54,056 nt of DNA from a virus. Taxonomy: Duplodnaviria > Caudoviricetes. Positions 1 to 50,195 of the stretch are shown in pieces (position 1 is the first letter of the stretch; every line of letters starts with the position of its first letter). The position numbers and the translations under genes were made by a program. The notes below the pieces were generated by a model. It ran no database searches and was not told where the DNA came from. It saw only the letters and a program-made list of their open reading frames with translations. The stretch is from positions 1 through 54,056 of IMG/VR virus record IMGVR_UViG_3300028045_000020. The stretch is one strand, 5' to 3'.

Positions 1-1254
1 ATAGGTTGCATTATTAGTAGCCCCAAGAAGATTGGTTAAGCACCCGCAAAGCTTTTCATTAAAATCTTGGGTTTCAGTTGTTTGTTTTGCGTAGTTAATG
101 TTCTCACTTCCTACAGCTTGGTAAGTAACATGGATATCACGCAACGATAGATTGTCCTCTTCGTTCAGACTATCCGGAACGGCAACTAAAAAAAGTTCAC
201 TAACTGCAGTTCGCACGACGGCATAATGTTCATCGATGAACGCGTCTGGAAGTGGGAGAGTATCTTTTGCTGCCAACGGCATTCTGCTACCATCAACTAT
301 TCCAGGAAAAATAGTCGAGGCTCCTACTATTGCCGTGTTGTCCCACATAGGAATTAGATAGAACTGAGCTACCGTAAACAAGTCCGGAAACAGTCCCTGC
401 CAAACCCATTTGTCCACTTCTGGGGTAGCTTCCAGATATTCTTTTATCGCCAGTCGGCATGTCTGAGAACTTGGGGAGGATCCTTTGTAAAAGATACCAA
501 ATGTCAAGTAGTGATGTGAGGCTAGTTTGCTGTTTACATATCTGGTTTGGAATTGCGCATAGCCGCTGTGGTCGTTTGAGCCTATGTTGCTGTTTAATAC
601 TGGGGCCATAAAATCAGCAGTCTCTTTAATCGCTTCTACCACCGTGCTATAATCGAGGTCTACGAGATCAATTGGCTTTGCTGGCGGAACAACTGCAGTC
701 ACTGTACAGTGAGGATAGCTAAGGAAAAAAGATTCTCTGCTGAGCCATAAATAAAAATCTTCCCTAAGTCCCTCTAGCATTACTCCAAATTTAATCCACG
801 TAGGGATCGCAACATCGACCGTAGACATATCTTCTAAGGTTACGGGTATTGGAGTAGTGACTGCGGAGATCGTAAGAGACTCGGCGACATAAATTCCATA
901 GGTAGCGATGTCAGAAATGAAAGTATTATTTAGTTCATTTGTGGTATGCTCACTCGACAGGCAGGCCTTCTCCACTATATTCTGAAATTTTTGCCAGTCT
1001 TCCTCTGGTACCCCGTCGAACAAGGCATCGTGCGAGAATCTATTTTTATCCAATTGAACTGCTATTCTTCCAAGAGCACGTTGGGATAAAATAGATAGCC
1101 GAAATGTTCGGGTGTCGTTGATTGAGACACGGTCTATAAAATAATTAGCCATCGCGTCATCGAAGTAACCACTTCCCTGATCCATTTCCCCAATATCAGT
1201 TAAATGGGTACGCAGGCGCTGCAGACTTTCGTCCGCTATGAATCCATAATGCAT
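1..1254 (-). CDS. Probable virion structural protein, 3' end runs off the window (not in the ORF track)
   Basis: Manual translation: ATG at 1254 after a GGAGGA RBS (1261-1266). The portions read (MHYGFIADESLQRLRTHL... and ...LFPDLFTVAQFYLIPMWD... to base 1) share one frame with no stops. The motif pattern recalls phiKZ-like virion proteins; function is inferred. Confidence 0.7.
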   Translation of the reverse strand, partial: MHYGFIADESLQRLRTHLTDIGEMDQGSGYFDDAMANYFIDRVSINDTRTFRLSILSQRALGRIAVQLDKNRFSHDALFDGVPEEDWQKFQNIVEKACLSSEHTTNELNNTFISDIATYGIYVAESLTISAVTTPIPVTLEDMSTVDVAIPTWIKFGVMLEGLREDFYLWLSRESFFLSYPHCTVTAVVPPAKPIDLVDLDYSTVVEAIKETADFMAPVLNSNIGSNDHSGYAQFQTRYVNSKLASHHYLTFGIFYKGSSPSSQTCRLAIKEYLEATPEVDKWVWQGLFPDLFTVAQFYLIPMWDNTAIVGASTIFPGIVDGSRMPLAAKDTLPLPDAFIDEHYAVVRTAVSELFLVAVPDSLNEEDNLSLRDIHVTYQAVGSENINYAKQTTETQDFNEKLCGCLTNLLGATNNATY

Positions 1255-1389
1255 ATCGTTTCCTCCGATATAAATTTATTTGTTAGACAACAGGTACTAC
1301 GACCTCTGTTTTTAATTTTAATGATGGCAAGTGTTAGCTATAAGATGTTGACTAAAGGATAAAAAAAATATTACTATGTAGCGATGGTA

Positions 1390-1605
1390 AGTGTGGCCTA
1401 CTCCATACTGGGAGATACGGAGTAGGCCGAAATATTTACTGAAGCCTAAGGGTTTTACCTCAGTAAACGATGCGACGACATCAGGTCATGATCCCACACG
1501 CCGTCTTCCGTCTACCAAGTACTTAAACCCAAGCATGCTATCGGATTATTGGAGACGGGGCTACGATTGTATTGTCGCGTAATTTGTAAAATAGCTTACA
1601 TGACA
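1390..1605 (-). ncRNA. Candidate structured non-coding RNA (or long structured leader)
   Basis: Lies just downstream of a promoter-like motif (1611-1621), with no minus-strand ORF >=60 aa. Stems: 1395-1404/1419-1428, 1435-1444/1458-1467, 1508-1517/1550-1558 (inner 1526-1532/1541-1547) and 1472-1476/1574-1578. Plus-strand A-C mismatches become G-U pairs on the minus strand. Confidence 0.5.
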
Positions 1606-1610
1606 CAATG

Positions 1611-1621
1611 ATAATATATAC
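1611..1621 (-). promoter_or_regulatory. Putative phage RNAP promoter motif (GTATATATTAT)
   Basis: 1-mismatch copy of the recurrent intergenic motif ATATATATTAT; resembles the phiKZ early promoter TATATTAC. Confidence 0.55.
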
Positions 1622-1694: not shown

Positions 1695-3176
1695 CTAATA
1701 TAAGGTACGCTCCTCATAAGTACGAGCCAACGGACTTATTAGCATACTTCGTAGTTTTCGATGTCGTTGATGTGAGGCTACAGCAACATTGCACATATCT
1801 ATAAACTCTGGCGTGTCGCCATTAGGAAGCTTTCGCAGTCTTCCTAATATTTGTTTAATAAGGGCTTCGCTCTTCGTGGATACAGTAGATATAACTGTTC
1901 GTAGATTAGATATATCTCTGCCGGTACCAGCAGAAGTTGGAGTAGATACAATTATGTCTACCCCATCGGCATAGTTATCATCAGGATCCACGGCAGTGTA
2001 CGGTTTTATTACAAGATTTGGATGTTGTATGGATAATTGTTCGACTAAAAGTTTAACTGATTTAATCTTACTAACCAATATAAGTAATTTTTGGTTAGTG
2101 GTTCTTATGCTTAAGTAATGATTGCGCACCATTGGATAAACAGTTAGTTCTAAGAACTTATCCCTTATATCATCCCTGCAATGCAAGACGACTTCTTCGT
2201 ATTTCCTATGATCGTACCCATGCGGACCAGTAACGTCCTGCTCCCTAATGTCGAGTCGATATAAAAAGCATCGAATATCTACGTATCTATCATAGTCGCG
2301 TGCGCCGTATCGTTTTACTTTTGGAAACACTTCATCAAATATAGCAAGCGTGCTCTTATCTGAATTAGTATAGGTTGCCGATAAATAAATATTGTGCTCG
2401 ATGTGTGATCTAAGATCTAACTGGGAAATAAAGTGAAAGTGCGTGTGGCATTCGTCGTTTACCTTGACTCCGATTCCATATTGCTCTAGGAACTCTCGAT
2501 AAGTGATCGGATAATCTCCAGTATTGCTTCTTACATACGCCCTTATAGTCGCCAATGAAGCTATAAAGACTTTCGGTCTTATCTCGGGATCGGCAAATAA
2601 GGTTAAGAATGACTTTTGACCACGTAACACCCAAATGTCAGTTTCCTGTATGTCGGTTAGTTTAAGGAATTCTCTTTTCCACTGTTCTACCAGCCCTGCG
2701 GTAACTATCATAGACACCATATTATGGCGTGTTATAGTTTTTATAGCCACCATTGTTTTTCCTACGCCAGTTTGTAACCCTATGGTCCTAACATGTCCTC
2801 CGTTCGGATCTATCAAATGTTTTAGGGCCCCAAGTTGTGCAGGCCGATCGACCCATTGTGGCTGCATACTGATATGTACTAGTCTGCCGACCACATTCTT
2901 TCCAAATTTTACTATAACATCGAATTCGTACTTCTGTAACTCTTTTAATAACGGCTCGGTAAAATTAATAGGTATAAGTAAAGATTTACTAAGCCTATCA
3001 TAGCTGTGATACTCTCTATTTGGAACGAATCTCCGATACCTTTTATTATAGCAGACAGAAGTAAGATTACTCTTTAAAAATTTACGCACGACTGTTGCTT
3101 GATACCCAAACACATCTCTGATTAAGATTGCTGCATGTGTCGAATACTTTGTTATAGTTATAGATTCCCCACCCAT
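1695..3176 (-). CDS. SF2 (DExH, UvsW/Rad25-like) helicase, phiKZ gp75-like
   Basis: Walker A QTGVGKT, DECH, LSAT, GTGRDI and QILGRLR motifs; follows the beta'-C gene as in phiKZ. Confidence 0.92.
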   Translation of the reverse strand: MGGESITITKYSTHAAILIRDVFGYQATVVRKFLKSNLTSVCYNKRYRRFVPNREYHSYDRLSKSLLIPINFTEPLLKELQKYEFDVIVKFGKNVVGRLVHISMQPQWVDRPAQLGALKHLIDPNGGHVRTIGLQTGVGKTMVAIKTITRHNMVSMIVTAGLVEQWKREFLKLTDIQETDIWVLRGQKSFLTLFADPEIRPKVFIASLATIRAYVRSNTGDYPITYREFLEQYGIGVKVNDECHTHFHFISQLDLRSHIEHNIYLSATYTNSDKSTLAIFDEVFPKVKRYGARDYDRYVDIRCFLYRLDIREQDVTGPHGYDHRKYEEVVLHCRDDIRDKFLELTVYPMVRNHYLSIRTTNQKLLILVSKIKSVKLLVEQLSIQHPNLVIKPYTAVDPDDNYADGVDIIVSTPTSAGTGRDISNLRTVISTVSTKSEALIKQILGRLRKLPNGDTPEFIDMCNVAVASHQRHRKLRSMLISPLARTYEERTLY

Positions 3177-3219
3177 CCGTTTCTACCCCCCTCCCGTAGT
3201 GACTTCAAAATCAGATATG

Positions 3220-3251
3220 CGTGCGATGTTGCGAAAATGCAACATCGCACG
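3220..3251. terminator. 13-bp hairpin after the RNAP beta'-C gene
   Basis: CGTGCGATGTTGC-gaaaat-GCAACATCGCACG. Confidence 0.6.
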
Positions 3252-3256
3252 TAGGA

Positions 3257-5218
3257 CTAGTCAAGTCCTATATAATTATCAAACATGCCAGGACTCTTTG
3301 GTATATTAAATGTAGCTGTCTCCGAGAAATATTTATTAATTAGTTCAAATGCAATTTTTGCTGATACCTCCCTGTTCGTAATGACTTCGCGTATAGTCTT
3401 ACATTTAAGATTCTCTATATCTGTTATTGCCGGTATCCTGTAATCATCCTCTTCCTCTATAAGAAAAGCCCTTACTACTATTTCCACATAAAATAAATTG
3501 ACTGAGGCCTTTTCATACAACAATTCTGTTAGCTCCCGCATCAACGTTGGTAATGACTTATACTTCTTTATCTTAGTATCGAAGAATGTAGCAACGCGCC
3601 TAGTGAACGCGACCATATCGTCGTTAAATGCTGAAAAATTGATAAGTGGTTTAGAGAAATCATATCCAGATAATGGAATAACATACCTGTCATTCTCCAC
3701 CGGTATCTCGTCTATTCGTAATGTTATATAAGACAACATAAAAGAGGATAGATACAAACGAAATTCTCCTGGAGCTAGTTCTATTTGCTCCACTAACGTT
3801 CCATCCAAGCGTCGCAACTCGAAGTGTTGGATCTCACTAAATGTTTCTGGCATGACGGCATCCACAAACTCTAAATCACGGAGGGAGTATGCTCCTTCTA
3901 CTGGAATATGCAGGTAATACTTTTTCAGTTCTGCCCATTTTTTCTTTTTCCAAGTAATATTTAATGGTGTTTTGACCAAATAAGTTTTGCTTCCTTCGGG
4001 CAAGGAATAATCCTTGGTTTTAGTTGCAATAAGATGCTTAGCGCTAAGGATCATTTGCGATATAATCCTCCCAACCTCGGTAGCAGCACGTATACCCACA
4101 TGTTGTCCCGGCGGCGTAAAGGCAGTCACTAAACTTATGTCGAAGACGTGATTATATTCGTCCCCAATCGCTCTGCCGGCACATGCTTCGCACACGCCAT
4201 CCGAATGCCGACAACCAAATGCTGATACCATATTCACAGTCTTTCCGATGTACGTATTCATGTTACGCTCATCTAATACTATTCGTTTCCCTTCCTCATC
4301 TATAACCTTATTCATAGCATTCTTGGCTAATGCTGGTGTTAGTTCGATCGGATAAGTTAAATTCCCGCCACAGTCTCCCGGGTGGAGATACCGCATGGCG
4401 GCAGTCACTAGTCGCAGTCTTCTTGCAAAATACTGCGCGTCCTTAATGATAGTCTTGGCGTATAGGTTAGACTTCTTCGAGCCTAACCCTTCTACCGCAT
4501 ACTCCACTATATTTTTTAACCCTGAAATATTAGAGGAGTTAACCACGGCACTCATCATGTTATCGTCGGTATCAGCACGGCAACCAAATCGCATGAGTAC
4601 CTGCGGAATTTGATTAAGTTTTAACTGCCCGGTTTCCATAAAATCAAGCAATACGTTATCTTTCACTGCCCCAGGCGTGGACAGTAGCTTAATGAACCGG
4701 GCTGCCTGAGCAGTAATAATTTCCTCAGCCTTTTCTGTTCCGATGGAGCTATCCACATCGGCATCAGTAAGTTCTTTTAGCTTCGGATCTCTCAGCATCT
4801 TACATAGCCCTAGTATAGATATAGCCTTTGCGTATGACCGGCACCATCGGGTAGAGAAGTTACTAAAGTCAGATACATTATCGGCCAAAGCTTTTAGACA
4901 CTCTGGTTGGGTAAGTCCGGAAACTTTTAGCAGCTTAAGATACATTTTAGTATGTATAGTGGCCAATGCGTTATCCGTCATAGTAGGCACCTCAATGACA
5001 TCCTCAAGTCCCGGCACAATCTCTAACCTAAAGTATACCTGCCACGCAACTATATTGAAGATAGCATGCCTTGCGGGTAAAGTCACTTCTCCGTCGATCA
5101 GTTGTAACACCATCAGTCCGGTATCTTCTCTGGCACGCATGGTATTGTATACGAAGTTGGGATCAGATATTTCCAACAGACTTCTGATTCGGATCAGCGG
5201 ATCGCGATTCTTATTCAT
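3257..5218 (-). CDS. Non-virion RNA polymerase beta' C-terminal subunit (phiKZ gp74-like)
   Basis: Bridge-helix-like YFARRL, Zn ligands DCG...CRHSDGVCEAC, trigger-loop-like SQMILSAKH. Start moved from 5269 to the ATG at 5218 because of an AGGAG RBS. Confidence 0.88.
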   Translation of the reverse strand: MNKNRDPLIRIRSLLEISDPNFVYNTMRAREDTGLMVLQLIDGEVTLPARHAIFNIVAWQVYFRLEIVPGLEDVIEVPTMTDNALATIHTKMYLKLLKVSGLTQPECLKALADNVSDFSNFSTRWCRSYAKAISILGLCKMLRDPKLKELTDADVDSSIGTEKAEEIITAQAARFIKLLSTPGAVKDNVLLDFMETGQLKLNQIPQVLMRFGCRADTDDNMMSAVVNSSNISGLKNIVEYAVEGLGSKKSNLYAKTIIKDAQYFARRLRLVTAAMRYLHPGDCGGNLTYPIELTPALAKNAMNKVIDEEGKRIVLDERNMNTYIGKTVNMVSAFGCRHSDGVCEACAGRAIGDEYNHVFDISLVTAFTPPGQHVGIRAATEVGRIISQMILSAKHLIATKTKDYSLPEGSKTYLVKTPLNITWKKKKWAELKKYYLHIPVEGAYSLRDLEFVDAVMPETFSEIQHFELRRLDGTLVEQIELAPGEFRLYLSSFMLSYITLRIDEIPVENDRYVIPLSGYDFSKPLINFSAFNDDMVAFTRRVATFFDTKIKKYKSLPTLMRELTELLYEKASVNLFYVEIVVRAFLIEEEDDYRIPAITDIENLKCKTIREVITNREVSAKIAFELINKYFSETATFNIPKSPGMFDNYIGLD

Positions 5219-15763: not shown

Positions 15764-15800
15764 TAGGAACTACCTGGTACGATGTACCAGGTAGTTCCTA
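15764..15800. terminator. Perfect 17-bp hairpin after the gp68-like gene
   Basis: TAGGAACTACCTGGTAC-gat-GTACCAGGTAGTTCCTA. Confidence 0.65.
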
Positions 15801-15805
15801 TACTA

Positions 15806-17392
15806 TCAAAATGTCACTAGTGTAATAGCGCATACACTTGTGATCAGTTTCTGCGTTGGTTGTACCTTGCGCCCATTCAAATTTGTACTGTCCATAAGCT
15901 CCCATAAATTATCCGCAGTATTATGCAGATAACCCTTATATAAGGTTGATTCGAGATAGTCGTCTATCATTCGGTCCCATCGCTTTCCGCCATCTTTTAA
16001 TGGGGAGGCGTCAGACCTTGCTCTACAAGCGCGATACTGTTCGGAAGTTTTTGCAGATAGTTTTACTCTATCATCAGTACTGCTCAGCTTTAACTTAGGT
16101 TCCTTTGTTGGTATAACAGTAAGCATAGTGAGTAACTCATAATACCCGAACTGTAGTACTACCAACTGTGCCAAGCACGCTAATTTGACGTAGTTAATAT
16201 GGTCGAGTAATTTTATACTCTGCCAGCCGCCAAGGTAGGTCCCAAAGATATGATTTATTACATGTTGATTTGTTACGTTTGGTACGATAGGGTGCTTGTG
16301 ATACCACTCCGTAGCAGTGATGAACTGCTTCTCCTCAATGTCATAATCTATTAAAAACTTATTTATTAACGGCGGAATGCTGGCCATGGGAAGAATGGCC
16401 TGATCGCAAGTTCCTATAGAGGTCTGACTATCCAGCTCTATATTAGCACGCGAGCCCTCCTCACCATCGTTTTCTCCAAATGGAGTACGGGTCATGAAGG
16501 CTGTTTTCTTGGCGTTTATTTCTCTCCCACGTATAATCTGCTTAACGGTAACGATTATAAATATCATAATGTTACCTTCATTCTTTGTAAATGGTCTGTA
16601 CAAGTCGATGTTTACGAAAGCTCTGGTGTACAAGTTACTCATTGTATGCCTCACCATATTTTCGAGACTTACGTTATGAAACACATTGGTTTGTGTCCGG
16701 TGAATACCGGAGTTAGACACATTCTTGGTATAGGTTCGGAGCTTAAGAACCAATTCAAGACATCTATTTTTCAATATGTCAGTTAGTATAACAGCACAGT
16801 GAACTTCTTTGAGTTGCACGTCTATTTCTCGCAAAAGAAAAGACATGAGTACTCCGTATATTGGCGCGAGTATCTTAGAGATTAATGCTATAACAGTCAC
16901 CTTCCGCCCGTCCTCTTCGGTAAATGTCATTTCTGCAGTATCCTGCGGTCGCAGCCCTGCCTTGCTGTAATCTCCTAATGGAATATTACCATCGGTAATA
17001 AACTTTTCTAACGTTCCCCACAGATCTATCTCGGAGTCTAACTCTGCTAAGTTACGACTAAGCTGATTCATTAGCTCTGGCAAGCGGACGATATCCGTCC
17101 TGTTCATAAATTTATTAATATCGTAGTGAGCGTTTAGCATAAACATCGCAATCTTTATTTGGTTTTCATCACTAAACTTAGTGAAAACTTTATTAACCGG
17201 GGAGGCCATTATCTCCCATTTTACAGACCTAGTCTCTAGTTTAATCAGATTGCGATACCTTGATATCTTAAACTTTAAAAATTCTGCCACATCCATCTGG
17301 ACCTTGGGAAGCGTCAAATCTCCAAGGTCCAGTCTAACCATAAGATCTTTGCCTGGTTCGGCCAACAGACAATAGTTTATCCCCTTCTTCAT
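15806..17392 (-). CDS. Non-virion RNAP sigma-like promoter-specificity subunit (phiKZ gp68-like)
   Basis: 528 aa, predicted mostly helical, TAEMTF motif; located in the SbcD...PicA...beta block where gp68 sits. Confidence 0.65.
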   Translation of the reverse strand: MKKGINYCLLAEPGKDLMVRLDLGDLTLPKVQMDVAEFLKFKISRYRNLIKLETRSVKWEIMASPVNKVFTKFSDENQIKIAMFMLNAHYDINKFMNRTDIVRLPELMNQLSRNLAELDSEIDLWGTLEKFITDGNIPLGDYSKAGLRPQDTAEMTFTEEDGRKVTVIALISKILAPIYGVLMSFLLREIDVQLKEVHCAVILTDILKNRCLELVLKLRTYTKNVSNSGIHRTQTNVFHNVSLENMVRHTMSNLYTRAFVNIDLYRPFTKNEGNIMIFIIVTVKQIIRGREINAKKTAFMTRTPFGENDGEEGSRANIELDSQTSIGTCDQAILPMASIPPLINKFLIDYDIEEKQFITATEWYHKHPIVPNVTNQHVINHIFGTYLGGWQSIKLLDHINYVKLACLAQLVVLQFGYYELLTMLTVIPTKEPKLKLSSTDDRVKLSAKTSEQYRACRARSDASPLKDGGKRWDRMIDDYLESTLYKGYLHNTADNLWELMDSTNLNGRKVQPTQKLITSVCAITLVTF

Positions 17393-18735: not shown

Positions 18736-18769
18736 AGAGTAAGAGTGGAATTAATTCCACTCTTACTCT
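18736..18769. repeat. Perfect 34-bp palindrome (hairpin/terminator)
   Basis: AGAGTAAGAGTGGAATTAATTCCACTCTTACTCT, 19 nt after the stop of 18789..19343. Confidence 0.75.
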
Positions 18770-22428: not shown

Positions 22429-22512
22429 TCGTTTTTGTTAAAGGTTTTGCTCTTAGGACATATAATGACAGCCTATGGTTAAAATACACTACACTAACTG
22501 CTACAAAAAAAA

Positions 22513-22557
22513 TATGTAACTAGGTCTTGAATGCCGAGTTCGGGACCTAGTTACATA
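22513..22557 (-). terminator. Rho-independent terminator of the small gene 22580..22765
   Basis: 14-bp stem TATGTAACTAGGTC/GACCTAGTTACATA followed by T8 on the minus strand. Confidence 0.75.
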
Positions 22558-22579
22558 GGGTTTGTAGCTTGCTCGTAAC

Positions 22580-22765
22580 TTAACTACCATGGAGACGCAA
22601 TGGAGTAAAAACAACCGTAGGAAAATCCTCTTCTTCAGGGGAGTACATGATATCCGACATTATTGGAGCTATAGGCCAAAGTGAATCGTCTCCTCGTATA
22701 ATTCCTATTCTATGTCGCGACAATGGAAGACATTCGGTTAAAGTAATATTTAAGTTTTTGTCCAT
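22580..22765 (-). CDS. Small (~61 aa) hypothetical protein in its own transcription unit
   Basis: AAGGAG RBS 9 nt before the ATG at 22765; promoter-like motif upstream and terminator downstream. Confidence 0.7.
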   Translation of the reverse strand: MDKNLNITLTECLPLSRHRIGIIRGDDSLWPIAPIMSDIMYSPEEEDFPTVVFTPLRLHGS

Positions 22766-22820
22766 GATCAATTTCTCCTTTAGTTGGTTAAGGTTATTCA
22801 GATCGCATCATATCGGTTCA

Positions 22821-22831
22821 ATGATATATAT
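22821..22831 (-). promoter_or_regulatory. Putative phage promoter (ATATATATCAT)
   Basis: 1-mismatch copy of the motif, 56 nt upstream of 22765. Confidence 0.55.
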
Positions 22832-22872
22832 CTAAAAAAAAATGAAGATCACGTTATCAGTGAAACAAAACC

Positions 22873-22910
22873 TACAACGGTAGCGTGTGTAAGCACACGC
22901 TACCGTTGTA
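22873..22910. terminator. Perfect 17-bp hairpin ending the ChmA-beta'-gp59-like operon
   Basis: TACAACGGTAGCGTGTG-taag-CACACGCTACCGTTGTA, immediately after the stop at 22912. Confidence 0.7.
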
Positions 22911-22911
22911 A

Positions 22912-25087: not shown

Positions 25088-26704
25088 TTACAGACTGTAG
25101 GGCGAACCACCTTGCTGGTAGTTTGGCAGATTGTTACTATGGAGCATGCCGCCATGGCCCGTGTAGCCTCCGGCTCCCTGCAGATTAACTCCATTATGGA
25201 ACATGTTAACCTGTTCGTTATACTCATACTCAATACTCTTGCCAAGATTAGTGTTGAGGAGTAAATGACATGCCCAGTTAGCGAAAGCAGGATTACTTAC
25301 CAACGAAGTACAAGTACCGACAAGTTTTCCTTCAAGTCCTTTAGCCTCAAGTAGCGCATGTCGGGCGAAGGGATCACTGCCTGATCGATAAAAGAATTCT
25401 TGAATAAGTCCCGGATCCTTAAGCAAAGTTGCCATCTTTAAGTAATCCCATTCTTTTGAATCCTGGAGTCTTCCATTGTCATTAATAAGTCCAGTCACTT
25501 CGGAATAGCTGGTAAGAAATGGGTGCGGTAAAGTTTCCATACCGAGCGATCGCATAAGCTCATCTACGTTCTGTGGAGTTAGTCCATAAAAGTCATTCAT
25601 GGCTTCCACCAAAAGATTCGGATTGCTCATCAAAAGATCAGTTCCAGCAATACGAAATCGAGAGTCGTCCAGCTCAAGCGCGATTGCTATCTCGTTCTGC
25701 GGAACTGCCTGGCTGATAAAATCGTACCACTCTTTTTCGGAAGTAACCTTATAGTGCCCACCCTCAGTATTTGGAACCAAGTTACCAATGTTTCGAGTTT
25801 CAAAATCCTTCTTATACGGTTTCCACCAGCCACGATTTTCAATGAACTGACCGACGAATAGAGGATGCAACAGTCCCCACAAATTTTTGTGTGGTATCGC
25901 ACTTGTAACGTTTGAAACTTTGATGACTCCACGAAACTTAGTTGGGTACCCACTTTGCTGATCGTTCTGGATCGGAACAAAGTCCATGTATGCGGTAACT
26001 GCGACCTGAATGTCACCAGATGAGTCCTGGTGCATCAAATTTTTTCGCTTGTTCGATCGGTCTCGTATGATAACCCCGAACCCAAAGTCTGCTCTTGATG
26101 GTATCGCATGGGGAGAAAACTTATCAATGAAAGCATTGATTCGTCCCATATCCGAAGTGATAAACATTTCTTGCCCTGGATTGTAATCAGTCTTCTCGAA
26201 TGCTTTGTGGTTTAACTCCATTTTCCATTGCGATCTGGCAGTAATCTGCAGTGATGCTTTTATAGCAGCTGCAGTTCGTTGTAGACGATCGTAATCTTCT
26301 GGCCACTGAATAATACCTTGTAGGACCTTAACTCCAGGAAAGGATAGTTGTAGCTGATTGGTCAAATCACCCAATGCGTACGTCGGTGGCTGGTTATACG
26401 TCGGAGAGTATGATTCTCCAAGACCAAGAATAATGGCATGAGTGGAATTTTTGGTAAGTATCGCGGCCCCTGCGATACGGTCATTATTAAGCGAATGTAA
26501 TACGAGGCCTGTGTTATCATGCTTGATGCAATCTCGCAGATCATCAATAAATTGTTTGCCGTTAGGGCTTAGAGTAGACGGAATGTCTATACTCTTAATG
26601 AGAGCATCCCACGAAGGGGCTGCCATTGTTGGCGGTTCCTTCCTCGGTGTCGCAGTACCTTGGTCAGGACGATCATTCTTTCCGACTGTTAAAGGCATGT
26701 TCAT
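25088..26704 (-). CDS. chmA: Probable chimallin (phage nuclear shell protein, phiKZ gp54-like)
   Basis: Large gene 6 nt upstream of the gp55-like subunit, the canonical ChmA position. Has a promoter motif, AGGAG RBS, low-complexity termini, and the motifs SRADF, TAYMDFV and RNIGNL. Not verified by search. Confidence 0.7.
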   Translation of the reverse strand: MNMPLTVGKNDRPDQGTATPRKEPPTMAAPSWDALIKSIDIPSTLSPNGKQFIDDLRDCIKHDNTGLVLHSLNNDRIAGAAILTKNSTHAIILGLGESYSPTYNQPPTYALGDLTNQLQLSFPGVKVLQGIIQWPEDYDRLQRTAAAIKASLQITARSQWKMELNHKAFEKTDYNPGQEMFITSDMGRINAFIDKFSPHAIPSRADFGFGVIIRDRSNKRKNLMHQDSSGDIQVAVTAYMDFVPIQNDQQSGYPTKFRGVIKVSNVTSAIPHKNLWGLLHPLFVGQFIENRGWWKPYKKDFETRNIGNLVPNTEGGHYKVTSEKEWYDFISQAVPQNEIAIALELDDSRFRIAGTDLLMSNPNLLVEAMNDFYGLTPQNVDELMRSLGMETLPHPFLTSYSEVTGLINDNGRLQDSKEWDYLKMATLLKDPGLIQEFFYRSGSDPFARHALLEAKGLEGKLVGTCTSLVSNPAFANWACHLLLNTNLGKSIEYEYNEQVNMFHNGVNLQGAGGYTGHGGMLHSNNLPNYQQGGSPYSL

Positions 26705-28069: not shown

Positions 28070-28103
28070 ACACAGGGCGGTAGGAGATCCTACCGCCCTG
28101 TGT
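28070..28103. terminator. Perfect hairpin between convergent genes
   Basis: ACACAGGGCGGTAGGA-ga-TCCTACCGCCCTGTGT. Confidence 0.7.
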
Positions 28104-29880: not shown

Positions 29881-31158
29881 TTAGGTTATGGCTTTTGCTA
29901 AAGCGTCAAGCAATAGTATATATATTGGAATTCTGTAAAATTGTTCCTCAGAAGACAGTGTTCTATATTGTTTGGATAACGTCATGAGGTCATTCTGATA
30001 AATAACTTTTTCTGTCATGTAAGCAGAAATAAGCTTATCTACTAAGGTATACTTGTCTGGGTCATTATTATAAAATGTCTGACCTAGGATATATAGCGGC
30101 ACCAAATCTATTGTTCCTGCTTCCTCGTCAGATATAACTACATTGTAAGATCTATTTAACAGTGTGTTAATAACAGTAGCTCTCTGATCAAGTGTGTGAG
30201 TTCTGGTAGTAACAAATTTTTTCAGCTTTTCTTTAGGCACGTCCCCGGGATGCAACAGCGCATACAGAAGAGTATCATTCCTGTTAGGTACCACCGTTAA
30301 TAGCTTTTTTGGCATTATGCCAACATCCATAAAACTTAAGGTACGGTTCAAGAAGTCTACCATGTACGGATCGTATACCCCATTCTCTTTGACAAAACTT
30401 CCGTACATATGTTCGTCCCAAAATAATTGCTTGTAATGCTCTATTAGTACGTTCCTAATTATGTGTATATCTCTGATCAATAGATATGTTTCGGACTCGA
30501 GTAAGGCGTTCTCTCCGGCACCAAATTTTTGCTTTGAGAAGTATACTATTTCTGTCACGGCATCTGTTAGGGTTTCAACTTCTGCACTAGACGGAAGACG
30601 GACCAGTATGAACTCGATGGCATGGTAGGTGAATCGCCGAATGGATAATTTCTTGCTGTCGTTTACTTTAAACAATCCTAACTGACCTGGATTTATTTCG
30701 TACAGGAACAGGTCCCCAACTTTAGGATAAATTCCGGGATAAACGTAAGCTGTTCCAGTCACAGTGTTATAATTTTCTTCTACGTTCTCATCAAAGGCCA
30801 GCCCTGCCTGAAACACCAACTCAAACTCATTGATCTGTAGTAATTCTCCATGCACAGAAGATATAGTTCCATCAGCTTCTGAGGTCCGAATATTTATAGG
30901 TGCAGTTTGCTGAAAGTACACCACCGTCCCGCGCATTCCCCCAGCAAACCCAGCAAGTAGCTTAACCGTATGTTGTTGTTCATCATAATTCAATGCAGAT
31001 TTATTCGTAAAGGTATCTTTAATATAGCCTCTATCGCTGATCGAACGCTTCTCACTTTCATCAATTGCTACTGGGGTATTAATGTATTCATGTACCTGTT
31101 GCTTTAGTGTCGACGCAGATGTCGACGATATTGACCCTTGCTGTGATATTAATCCCAT
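29881..31158 (-). CDS. Probable virion structural protein (gp99-like position)
   Basis: 425 aa; GTAYVYPGIYPKVGDLF resembles a head-tail-connector beta-barrel motif; AAGGAG RBS. Confidence 0.6.
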   Translation of the reverse strand: MGLISQQGSISSTSASTLKQQVHEYINTPVAIDESEKRSISDRGYIKDTFTNKSALNYDEQQHTVKLLAGFAGGMRGTVVYFQQTAPINIRTSEADGTISSVHGELLQINEFELVFQAGLAFDENVEENYNTVTGTAYVYPGIYPKVGDLFLYEINPGQLGLFKVNDSKKLSIRRFTYHAIEFILVRLPSSAEVETLTDAVTEIVYFSKQKFGAGENALLESETYLLIRDIHIIRNVLIEHYKQLFWDEHMYGSFVKENGVYDPYMVDFLNRTLSFMDVGIMPKKLLTVVPNRNDTLLYALLHPGDVPKEKLKKFVTTRTHTLDQRATVINTLLNRSYNVVISDEEAGTIDLVPLYILGQTFYNNDPDKYTLVDKLISAYMTEKVIYQNDLMTLSKQYRTLSSEEQFYRIPIYILLLDALAKAIT

Positions 31159-36542: not shown

Positions 36543-36579
36543 CGGTACATGAGTGGATTAACTATCCACTCATGTACCG
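36543..36579. terminator. Perfect 16-bp hairpin after tail-fibre gene 1
   Basis: CGGTACATGAGTGGAT-taact-ATCCACTCATGTACCG. Confidence 0.7.
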
Positions 36580-44587: not shown

Positions 44588-44620
44588 ACCGTCCTACGAG
44601 CAAAGCACTCATAGGACGGT
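44588..44620 (-). terminator. Hairpin between tail-fibre genes
   Basis: ACCGTCCTAcGAG/CTCaTAGGACGGT; the mismatch is a G-U pair on the minus strand. Confidence 0.6.
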
Positions 44621-50156: not shown

Positions 50157-50195
50157 TTACTTGCCGCGTTCGTACTACCCAAACGCGGCAAGTAA
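50157..50195. terminator. 14-bp hairpin between tail-fibre genes
   Basis: TTACTTGCCGCGTT...AACGCGGCAAGTAA. Confidence 0.6.

Follow-up and report, generated by a model that had tools for sequence, protein, structure and literature searches.

A promoter-like motif and tandem hairpins bound a gene-less gap, the possible source of a short early RNA, in a divergent marine phage

A long non-coding gap between a helicase gene and a virion structural gene

The DNA analyzed here (referred to as the window) is a virus record of 54,056 bases from IMG/VR, with an estimated completeness of about 20% and with almost all of its genes on the minus strand. In this record, a gap of 440 nt (positions 1255-1694) separates the stop codon of a helicase gene, at 1695, from the start codon of a structural gene, at 1254. 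The upstream neighbor encodes an SF2 helicase of 493 aa (1695-3176, minus strand) that matches the phrog_16 DNA helicase family with an E-value of 1.8e-23. The downstream gene (1-1254, minus strand) encodes the N-terminal part (418 aa) of a "virion structural protein" that is conserved in chimalliviruses (phrog_3293, E 8e-24), for which tblastn found matches at 20-25% identity in 29 phage records (EL, OBP, and Serratia and Vibrio jumbo phages). No other gap in the 54-kb window that lacks an ORF exceeds 190 nt, and the core of the one between these two genes has a GC content of 0.46-0.51, compared with 0.25-0.34 in the flanks and a genome mean of 0.425. A scan for tRNA and tmRNA genes found none in the window.

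The window carries the genes of a split multisubunit RNA polymerase (phrog_3015 and phrog_3295, with the Pfam domains Rpb2_6 and Rpb1_2) and, to judge from its sequence, it is a fragment of a very divergent phiKZ-like phage, uncultured and of marine origin. Its helicase shares 25-28% identity with the helicases of named jumbo phages (tblastn), and a blastn search of 50,697 phage records found no DNA similarity of the window to named phages. Two seawater metagenome DNA runs, and no RNA run, are listed as carrying DNA of the window; the first has an identical contig, which may be the source of the record, and the second contributed solely identical fragments, all of them outside the gap, with no variants recovered from either run.

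The 3' part of the gap is an AT-rich spacer that precedes the structural gene (1255-1394, minus strand; GC 0.31-0.34). It is unstructured (z +0.97) and includes a T8 run at 1368-1361 and a ribosome site, GGAGGA, at 1266-1261. In addition, a 12-nt direct repeat, ACACTTRCCATC, occurs on the minus strand at 1394-1383 and 1334-1323, with a spacing of 60 nt, between the hairpin at 1395-1428 that is described below and the structural gene. No further exact copy of this repeat exists in the window, and it may be a protein-binding or late-promoter element.

A repeated promoter-like motif in the 5' part of the gap

A preliminary description of this locus reported a phage promoter motif at 1611-1621. 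We located it at 1620-1611 on the minus strand, where it is one of five exact copies of the word TATATATTAT in the window, against 0.45 ± 0.66 copies expected; none of 100 shuffled sequences reached five. All five exact copies are intergenic, on the minus strand, and in the sense of the genes. When one mismatch was allowed, 21 sites were found against 13.1 ± 3.7 expected, a count that 3 of 100 shuffles attained, and 12 of the 21 lie in gene sense. The word also persists in distant relatives: the pattern TATATATTA[TC] is present in 49 of 122 of their loci, and among 110 non-duplicate related loci 60 occurrences have the sense of the helicase and 10 the reverse orientation. It is positioned directly 3' of the helicase gene in loci L004, L031/L032, L044, and L046, and in L044 it precedes a 72-aa ORF that is followed by a terminator. 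Sites resembling sigma-70 promoters show no enrichment in the window (38 found with 53.9 expected, and 52 with 52.6 expected). Collectively, the excess of copies, their intergenic placement in gene sense, and their retention in relatives mean that the promoter-like nature of TATATATTAT is well supported at the level of sequence.

As a conserved AT-rich word of about 10 nt that is repeated and placed in gene sense, TATATATTAT has the features of phiKZ-type early promoters, the kind used by the virion RNA polymerase. The portions of the published descriptions used here (PMC7598289; Wicke et al., PMC8244752) depict such promoters as conserved AT-rich words of about 10 nt that lie upstream of operons, are strand-biased, and are common to related phages, and the copy at 1620 further resembles them in having a T-rich stretch upstream. 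In contrast to this general likeness, the word itself is specific to the phage group of the window, and its assignment to a polymerase is made by analogy. The class "early" is likewise an analogy with phiKZ-like phages, since searches put a name to few of the genes behind the other copies of the motif. If the position of the motif relative to the start site, as given in the relevant part of PMC7598289, holds for this phage, transcription from 1620-1611 would start near 1605.

Two genes for proteins of about 530 aa (15806-17392 and 25088-26704, minus strand) follow exact copies of the motif, one of them presumably being the gene that the preliminary description called chmA. A tblastn search of named phages and a sequence search of the PDB matched neither protein; the first belongs weakly to a PHROG of unknown function, and the second has no PHROG.

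The copy at 1620-1611 is an exception among the gene-sense sites in its distance to the next start codon, which is 357 nt. Of the 11 other sites in gene sense (up to one mismatch), ten are followed by a start codon after 33-115 nt, and one falls within a gene, with 1194 nt to the next start codon. The short leaders behind the other intergenic copies argue against one account of the gap, namely that it provides a plain, long 5' untranslated leader for the virion structural gene, giving no discrete short product and containing hairpins that act as mRNA stabilizers or processing sites. It would also be unusual for a virion structural gene to have an early-type promoter, and the homologous gene comes after a terminator or hairpin in three groups of relatives. 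On the other hand, transcription in this phage often runs through gene-end hairpins into the following gene, and no second promoter motif, at up to two mismatches, was found between the hairpin at 1395-1428 and the ATG at 1254, an absence equally compatible with a plain long leader and with the short RNA that we favor below. Weighing these points, we consider a plain long leader quite unlikely.

Coding potential of the gap

No frame is open throughout the gap, stop codons being present in all six. On the minus strand, no ORF of at least 20 aa starts 3' of the motif, and a Shine-Dalgarno sequence precedes none of the seven ORFs of at least 8 aa, in agreement with the initial statement that neither an ORF nor a ribosome site follows the motif. 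The candidate gap RNA also contains no ORF of at least 10 aa with a Shine-Dalgarno sequence, an absence that is one of the features by which the short 5'UTR-derived ncRNAs of phiKZ are defined. A minus-strand frame that stays open for 55 codons had no database match, tblastx of the gap against related loci returned nothing better than E 0.8, and the 111-aa gene that follows the helicase in L006 and L007 has no counterpart in the window.

On the plus strand, an ORF of 63 aa with a GTG start (1391-1582) was tried as a gene and rejected. The preliminary description had named conservation of this protein as a finding that would speak against an RNA at this site, and we looked for homologs and found none: the ORF belongs to no PHROG family, has no word-sharing candidate, and has 0 matches among 1,835,955,588 representatives. 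Moreover, it is antisense to all neighboring genes, and its start lies inside the hairpin at 1395-1428.

A promoter, a non-coding segment, and an AT-rich unstructured region also make up the layout of promoter-dependent replication origins, such as the primary origin of T7 and oriF and oriG of T4. On this reading, the transcript would form an R-loop that primes DNA synthesis in the AT-rich region 1255-1390, beside the helicase gene. Beyond this layout nothing specific favors an origin, and no iterons, skew signal, or conservation were found; we regard it as highly improbable.

Folding of the non-coding segment

The minus strand of 1390-1610 (221 nt) folds with a predicted energy of -78.3 kcal/mol (z -5.57), which none of 200 shuffled sequences matched, compared with -64.3 kcal/mol (z -2.46) for the plus strand. 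This signal is unevenly distributed. The subsegment 1388-1474, which holds two hairpins at the 3' end, reaches -38.0 kcal/mol on the minus strand (z -7.31, equaled by 0 of 200 shuffles) and -29.6 kcal/mol on the plus strand (z -3.42), whereas the minus strand of 1475-1610 has a z-score of -0.71, with 39 of 200 shuffles folding equally well. The excess stability of the minus strand comes entirely from the two 3' hairpins, and the 5' two thirds behave like shuffled sequence. In the comparison with shuffles on both strands that the preliminary description had suggested, the stretch as a whole thus folds better than the controls, but owing to its 3' hairpins only. Among 2,692 windows of 220 nt, the minus strand of 1361-1580 ranks eighth, and the other top-ranking windows are sites of intergenic hairpins.

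The preliminary description had further proposed that the minus strand folds into an irregular rod of about 110 nt with a GCGAC/GUCGC helix at its base. We found that the proposed rod (1468-1580, minus strand) has a z-score of -0.81, with 37 of 200 shuffles folding equally well, and that the pairs of its closing helix have probabilities of 0.007-0.011; forcing this helix gives -74.8 instead of -78.3 kcal/mol, a cost of 3.5 kcal/mol. The split z-scores, coupled with the disfavored closing helix, indicate that 1390-1610 is a string of separate hairpins and not a rod. Other elements of the proposal were recovered. The minimum-energy fold contains the stems CCGUCUCCAA/UUGG.UAGACGG and AAUCCGA/UUGGGUU as well as two more hairpins, the duplicated AGACGG is present, and pairs that are G-U on the minus strand and A-C on the plus strand occur at 1547-1526 (two), 1505-1474 (two), 1468-1434 (three), and 1428-1395 (two).

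In the 5' part, two minus-strand hairpins are predicted, one at 1508-1558 (10 + 7 bp around an internal loop; pair probabilities averaging 0.97 and 0.87) and one at 1474-1505 (8 + 2 bp, with the second copy of AGACGG). Both are well defined in the ensemble (p 0.87-0.98) but neither stands above chance, and the stretches of 113-136 nt that enclose the hairpin at 1508-1558 have z-scores of -0.7 to -0.8. The 3' part consists of a first hairpin at 1434-1468 (12 bp, 11-nt loop, three G-U pairs, -12 kcal/mol) and a second at 1395-1428 (14 bp, 6-nt loop, two G-U pairs, -23.7 kcal/mol, tail ACACTTACCATC), both on the minus strand. The two hairpins depend on five G-U pairs, and only on the minus strand do they attain ten contiguous pairs; they are thus RNA elements of the transcribed strand.

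Neither 3' hairpin has the form of an intrinsic terminator, that is, a GC-rich hairpin with an immediate U-tract. No U-tract follows them (their tails are ATTTCGGCC and ACACTTACC), a terminator scan flagged neither, and the T8 run of the spacer lies 26 nt past the hairpin at 1395-1428. As the hairpins have no U-tract, termination at this site is presumptive; the hairpin at 1395-1428 is the putative 3' boundary of the short RNA.

Two complementarities were noted within the segment. The 5' arm of the hairpin at 1434-1468 is 74% complementary over 19 nt to the ribosome site of the gene that starts at 1254, a match that we judged to be due to chance from an estimate of the number of possible pairs. 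The duplicated UAGACGGAAGACGG, at 1514-1501 on the minus strand, is a perfect 14-nt complement of 30601-30588 (minus strand) in the mRNA of gene 29881-31158, and its E-value of 0.13 is compatible with chance.

Gene-end hairpins across the window

The preliminary description had placed an 18-bp hairpin between the motif and the helicase gene as an insulator. This hairpin exists at 1651-1685 on the minus strand, directly after the helicase stop, with 16 contiguous pairs (about 18-19 if the outer pairs are included), fully complementary arms (100%), an energy of -27 to -30 kcal/mol, and no U-tract; the 50 nt around it have a z-score of -5.91. It lies 30 nt upstream of the motif, and the same order of hairpin and motif recurs at 18736/18683, 22872/22830, and 36543/36533.

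A catalog of all stems of at least 10 bp in the window showed that nearly every intergenic gap has one strong hairpin of 13-20 bp with an energy of -22 to -31 kcal/mol, the sequences all being different. Thirteen gene-end hairpins lie at 1651, 3218, 10081, 15764, 18736, 22513, 22872, 25042, 28070, 35071, 36543, 44588, and 50157, and examples of their extents are 3218-3253, 15764-15800, 28070-28103, 36543-36579, 44588-44620, and 50157-50195. A T-rich tail follows about 4 of the 13. The usual intergenic order in the window is stop, hairpin, promoter, ribosome site, and start. Several gene-end hairpins are located directly 5' of the next ribosome site, so that read-through evidently occurs often. 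Since, by our reading, 3 of about 14 intergenic hairpins are stronger on the plus strand, the bias toward the minus strand is a trend and not a rule. Gene-end hairpins look like genome-wide structures that serve the phage's own polymerases as RNA 3' ends, attenuators, or processing sites.

The hairpin at 1395-1428 belongs to the same class as these gene-end hairpins. We found no basis for the view that the gap specifies a single, specially structured RNA of about 210 nt: the 5' two thirds are shuffle-like, and the two hairpins that bear the folding signal are ordinary for this genome.

A complete unit of comparable layout was observed at 22429-22911 on the minus strand, where a hairpin of 18 bp is followed by the promoter variant TATATATCAT, and this in turn by a ribosome site, an ORF of 61 aa (22580-22765, minus strand; no family), and a hairpin with T8. 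The gap at 1255-1694 follows the order of this mini-cassette, but without an ORF and with two hairpins.

The slot after the helicase gene in relatives

The relatives with which we compared the gap all have helicases of at most 40% identity to that of the window. The closest helicase matches found with protein and alignment queries were at most 36% identical in IMG/VR, at most 40% in JGI metagenomes, and 33% in GTDB genomes; closer relatives occur on Logan contigs (P0002 with 61% identity, on a contig of 2.2 kb, and P0003 with 46%, on one of 32 kb), and an assembly of 191,840 bp encodes an identical helicase. In 14 of 121 related loci, duplicates included, the structural gene is within reach downstream of the helicase. 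The slot immediately 3' of the helicase has a variable content. In L006, L007, and L009 it holds an ORF of 111-113 aa and a strong terminator before the homologous structural gene, in L044 small-ORF cassettes behind the same promoter word, and in L003, L004, and L045 other small ORFs, while L012 has no gene there, just a hairpin and an AT-rich word. When the relatives were surveyed crudely for ORF-less gaps 3' of the helicase, random ORFs of at least 40 aa masked such gaps.

Homologs of the gap RNA were sought and none was found by blastn against 50,697 phage records, by a DNA search of five near-complete related genomes, or by two exact-pattern scans of IMG/VR; blastn, nhmmer, and tblastx searches of 122 related loci (893 kb) recovered the promoter word only. 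A single-sequence covariance model of the RNA, R1, run on the window, 98 of the 122 loci, and five related genomes, found itself, plus matches at E 0.9 and 9.3. With no homolog of the RNA body in these sets, there is no sign of selection on it. The Rfam scan that had been suggested for this site likewise matched no family: nothing in the whole window attained a gathering score, and the six matches on 1000-2000 all had E-values of at least 2.2, far below threshold, with no 6S RNA at E-values up to 10.

The variable slot suggests that the gap might be the relic of a lost cassette for a small early gene, whose ORF decayed or was deleted to leave a promoter, junk sequence, and a terminator hairpin with a functionless transcript. 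In line with this, relatives have different genes in the slot or, in L012, none, an intact cassette of like layout exists at 22429-22911, the 5' part of the gap is no more structured than chance, and no homolog attests to conservation. Hairpin-plus-promoter modules also recall the PeSL (promoter-early stem-loop) cassettes of T4-type phages, which, in the part of Arbiol et al. (2010, PMC2839356) considered here, drive modular shuffling and have stem-loops proposed as a barrier against early transcription spilling into late virion genes. Like PeSL cassettes, the window combines a stem-loop and a promoter between genes, flanking small accessory genes, and a slot of variable content. Unlike them, as that part of the source describes them, it has hairpins that all differ, where PeSL modules are nearly identical and recombine, and its sigma-70-like sites are not enriched, where PeSL promoters are of sigma-70 type. 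Several observations stand against a relic. No trace of a former gene is visible, as there is no ribosome site and no similarity in any frame to the slot genes of relatives or to database proteins. Only about 100 nt lie between a leader of normal length and the hairpins, which is scant room for an ORF. Furthermore, the core has not decayed to the AT-rich level of intergenic DNA, its GC content of 0.46-0.51 being above the genome mean of 0.425, and the limit of 190 nt on all other gaps suggests that useless DNA is purged. We view a relic as possible but doubtful.

In one relative, L049, whose helicase is 36% identical to that of the window, the helicase gene and two tiny ORFs are followed by an ORF-less segment of 380 nt (4610-4990, plus strand). 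In gene sense this segment folds at -124.4 kcal/mol (z -8.70, 0 of 100 shuffles), compared with -92.1 kcal/mol (z -6.80) for the other strand, and it ends in a canonical terminator of hairpin and T8. It matches no Rfam family and does not resemble the gap of the window; an apparent GACGG-AAGACGG likeness was dismissed, its local score of 25 being at chance level (23 ± 2.9 in shuffles). On modeled thermodynamics, the L049 segment is a stronger ncRNA candidate than the gap itself.

The preliminary description had favored a dedicated early RNA as its main reading, in which case the gap would encode a trans-acting RNA of about 210 nt whose fold is the functional entity, for instance as a protein sponge, an RNA polymerase decoy, or an anti-defense RNA. 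A promoter-like motif of its own and a 3' hairpin delimit the gap as a discrete unit, folding strongly favors the minus strand, the ensemble shows well-defined hairpins at 1558-1508 and 1505-1474, the GC content of the core exceeds that of the flanks, and the L049 segment (z -8.7), in the same neighborhood of a relative, provides a structured parallel. Against this, the rod and the 5' domain are shuffle-like (z -0.7 to -0.8), with a closing helix at p ~0.01, R1 finds only itself in the window and 98 loci, nothing similar occurs in the five near-complete relatives, and the 14-nt match to a phage mRNA (E 0.13) does not exceed chance. The size of about 180-210 nt and the proposed rod shape do resemble those of 6S RNA and similar polymerase-decoy rods. 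In contrast to 6S RNA, however, the rod is disfavored and not above chance, and no 6S family was matched. We consider a dedicated structured RNA unlikely, and found no support for the functions as polymerase decoy, anti-defense RNA, or scaffold that the preliminary description had put forward, neither 6S nor any other Rfam family being matched. A more elaborate scenario seems to us improbable as well: in a marine jumbo phage of the nucleus-forming type, the virion RNA polymerase that is injected would make a stand-alone early ncRNA within minutes of infection; this RNA would act in trans on the host or on phage mRNAs, and would be one of several unrelated, lineage-specific RNA cassettes in a plastic slot after the helicase, the 380-nt segment of L049 being another.

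A proposed gene-less unit from promoter to hairpin

The reading that we prefer, and to which we give about an even chance, is that the gap is a gene-less unit producing a short early RNA of about 180-215 nt, and that hairpins of the gene-end type bound this RNA and shield the downstream virion gene, with some read-through. The phiKZ-type AT-rich promoter at 1620-1611 (minus strand) would start an RNA near 1605 that has no translatable frame. About 140 nt further on, the RNA would form two strong tandem hairpins, 1468-1434 and 1428-1395, which appear to be selected on the transcribed strand. These hairpins, 140-225 nt downstream of the motif and 140 nt before the ATG at 1254, may stop, pause, or stabilize at the 3' end most transcripts, giving an RNA of about 180-215 nt, and could thereby protect the structural gene, which is presumably late, from early transcription. 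A fraction of transcripts may continue as a long leader of the structural gene. Where the candidate RNA would start and end, and when it would be made, are inferred, and one result against this short-RNA reading is that its first 136 nt are no more stably folded than shuffled sequence.

With respect to the preliminary description as a whole, the motif, the non-coding nature of the segment, the strand bias of the hairpins, and the layout from promoter through about 215 nt to a hairpin are all supported at the level of sequence, and what finds no support is a special structured RNA. Its fallback suggestion, in which the segment is a long leader that regulates the gene at 1254, comes close to the reading that we prefer.

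The nearest parallel to the proposed unit is found in phiKZ. As reported in the part of Putzeys et al. (2024, PMC10914365) on which we draw, phiKZ has 17 candidates for 5'UTR-derived ncRNAs, which arise when transcription ends prematurely, fewer than 250 nt past the start site, and include species of 71 nt and 141 nt with more than 90% premature termination, observed by ONT-cappable-seq and northern blots. Examples in phiKZ and other virulent Pseudomonas phages lie upstream of the major head gene and of the primase/helicase gene. The gap shares with these RNAs, as far as that part describes them, a promoter-like motif, strong hairpins as a putative 3' end before a gene, a predicted product below 250 nt, the absence of an ORF with a Shine-Dalgarno sequence, and possible read-through. 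It differs in that the phiKZ-type RNAs were seen experimentally and are conserved within genera, whereas the gap RNA is predicted from sequence alone. It differs as well in its hairpins, which are without the TTAT motif that accompanies the terminator hairpins of phiKZ in the same account, and the gap is unrelated in sequence to these RNAs.

Should the short RNA exist, gene-less RNAs close to promoters would be a general trait among phiKZ-like phages. Such RNAs have so far been mapped only in cultured Pseudomonas phages, and the gap would add a marine lineage that is very distant and uncultured and would supply a concrete candidate for an early RNA regulator or insulator of a phage. At present, the value of the analysis is mostly corrective, since the striking folding score of this locus is traced to two ordinary gene-end hairpins and not to a special RNA architecture.

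A group I intron and possible inteins in relatives

Two further observations concern the relatives. Locus L003, from a related phage of 235 kb, contains a group I intron at 657-1043 on the plus strand (Rfam RF00028, 52.4 bits, E 7.6e-11), about 4 kb upstream of the helicase. In addition, several helicase homologs are longer than the others (P0004, P0006, and P0008, and those at 5001-7202 of L011 and 5001-6827 of L014) and show PF14890/PF14528 intein or homing-endonuclease domains, or matches in two pieces with an insert, which suggests that this helicase family harbors inteins.
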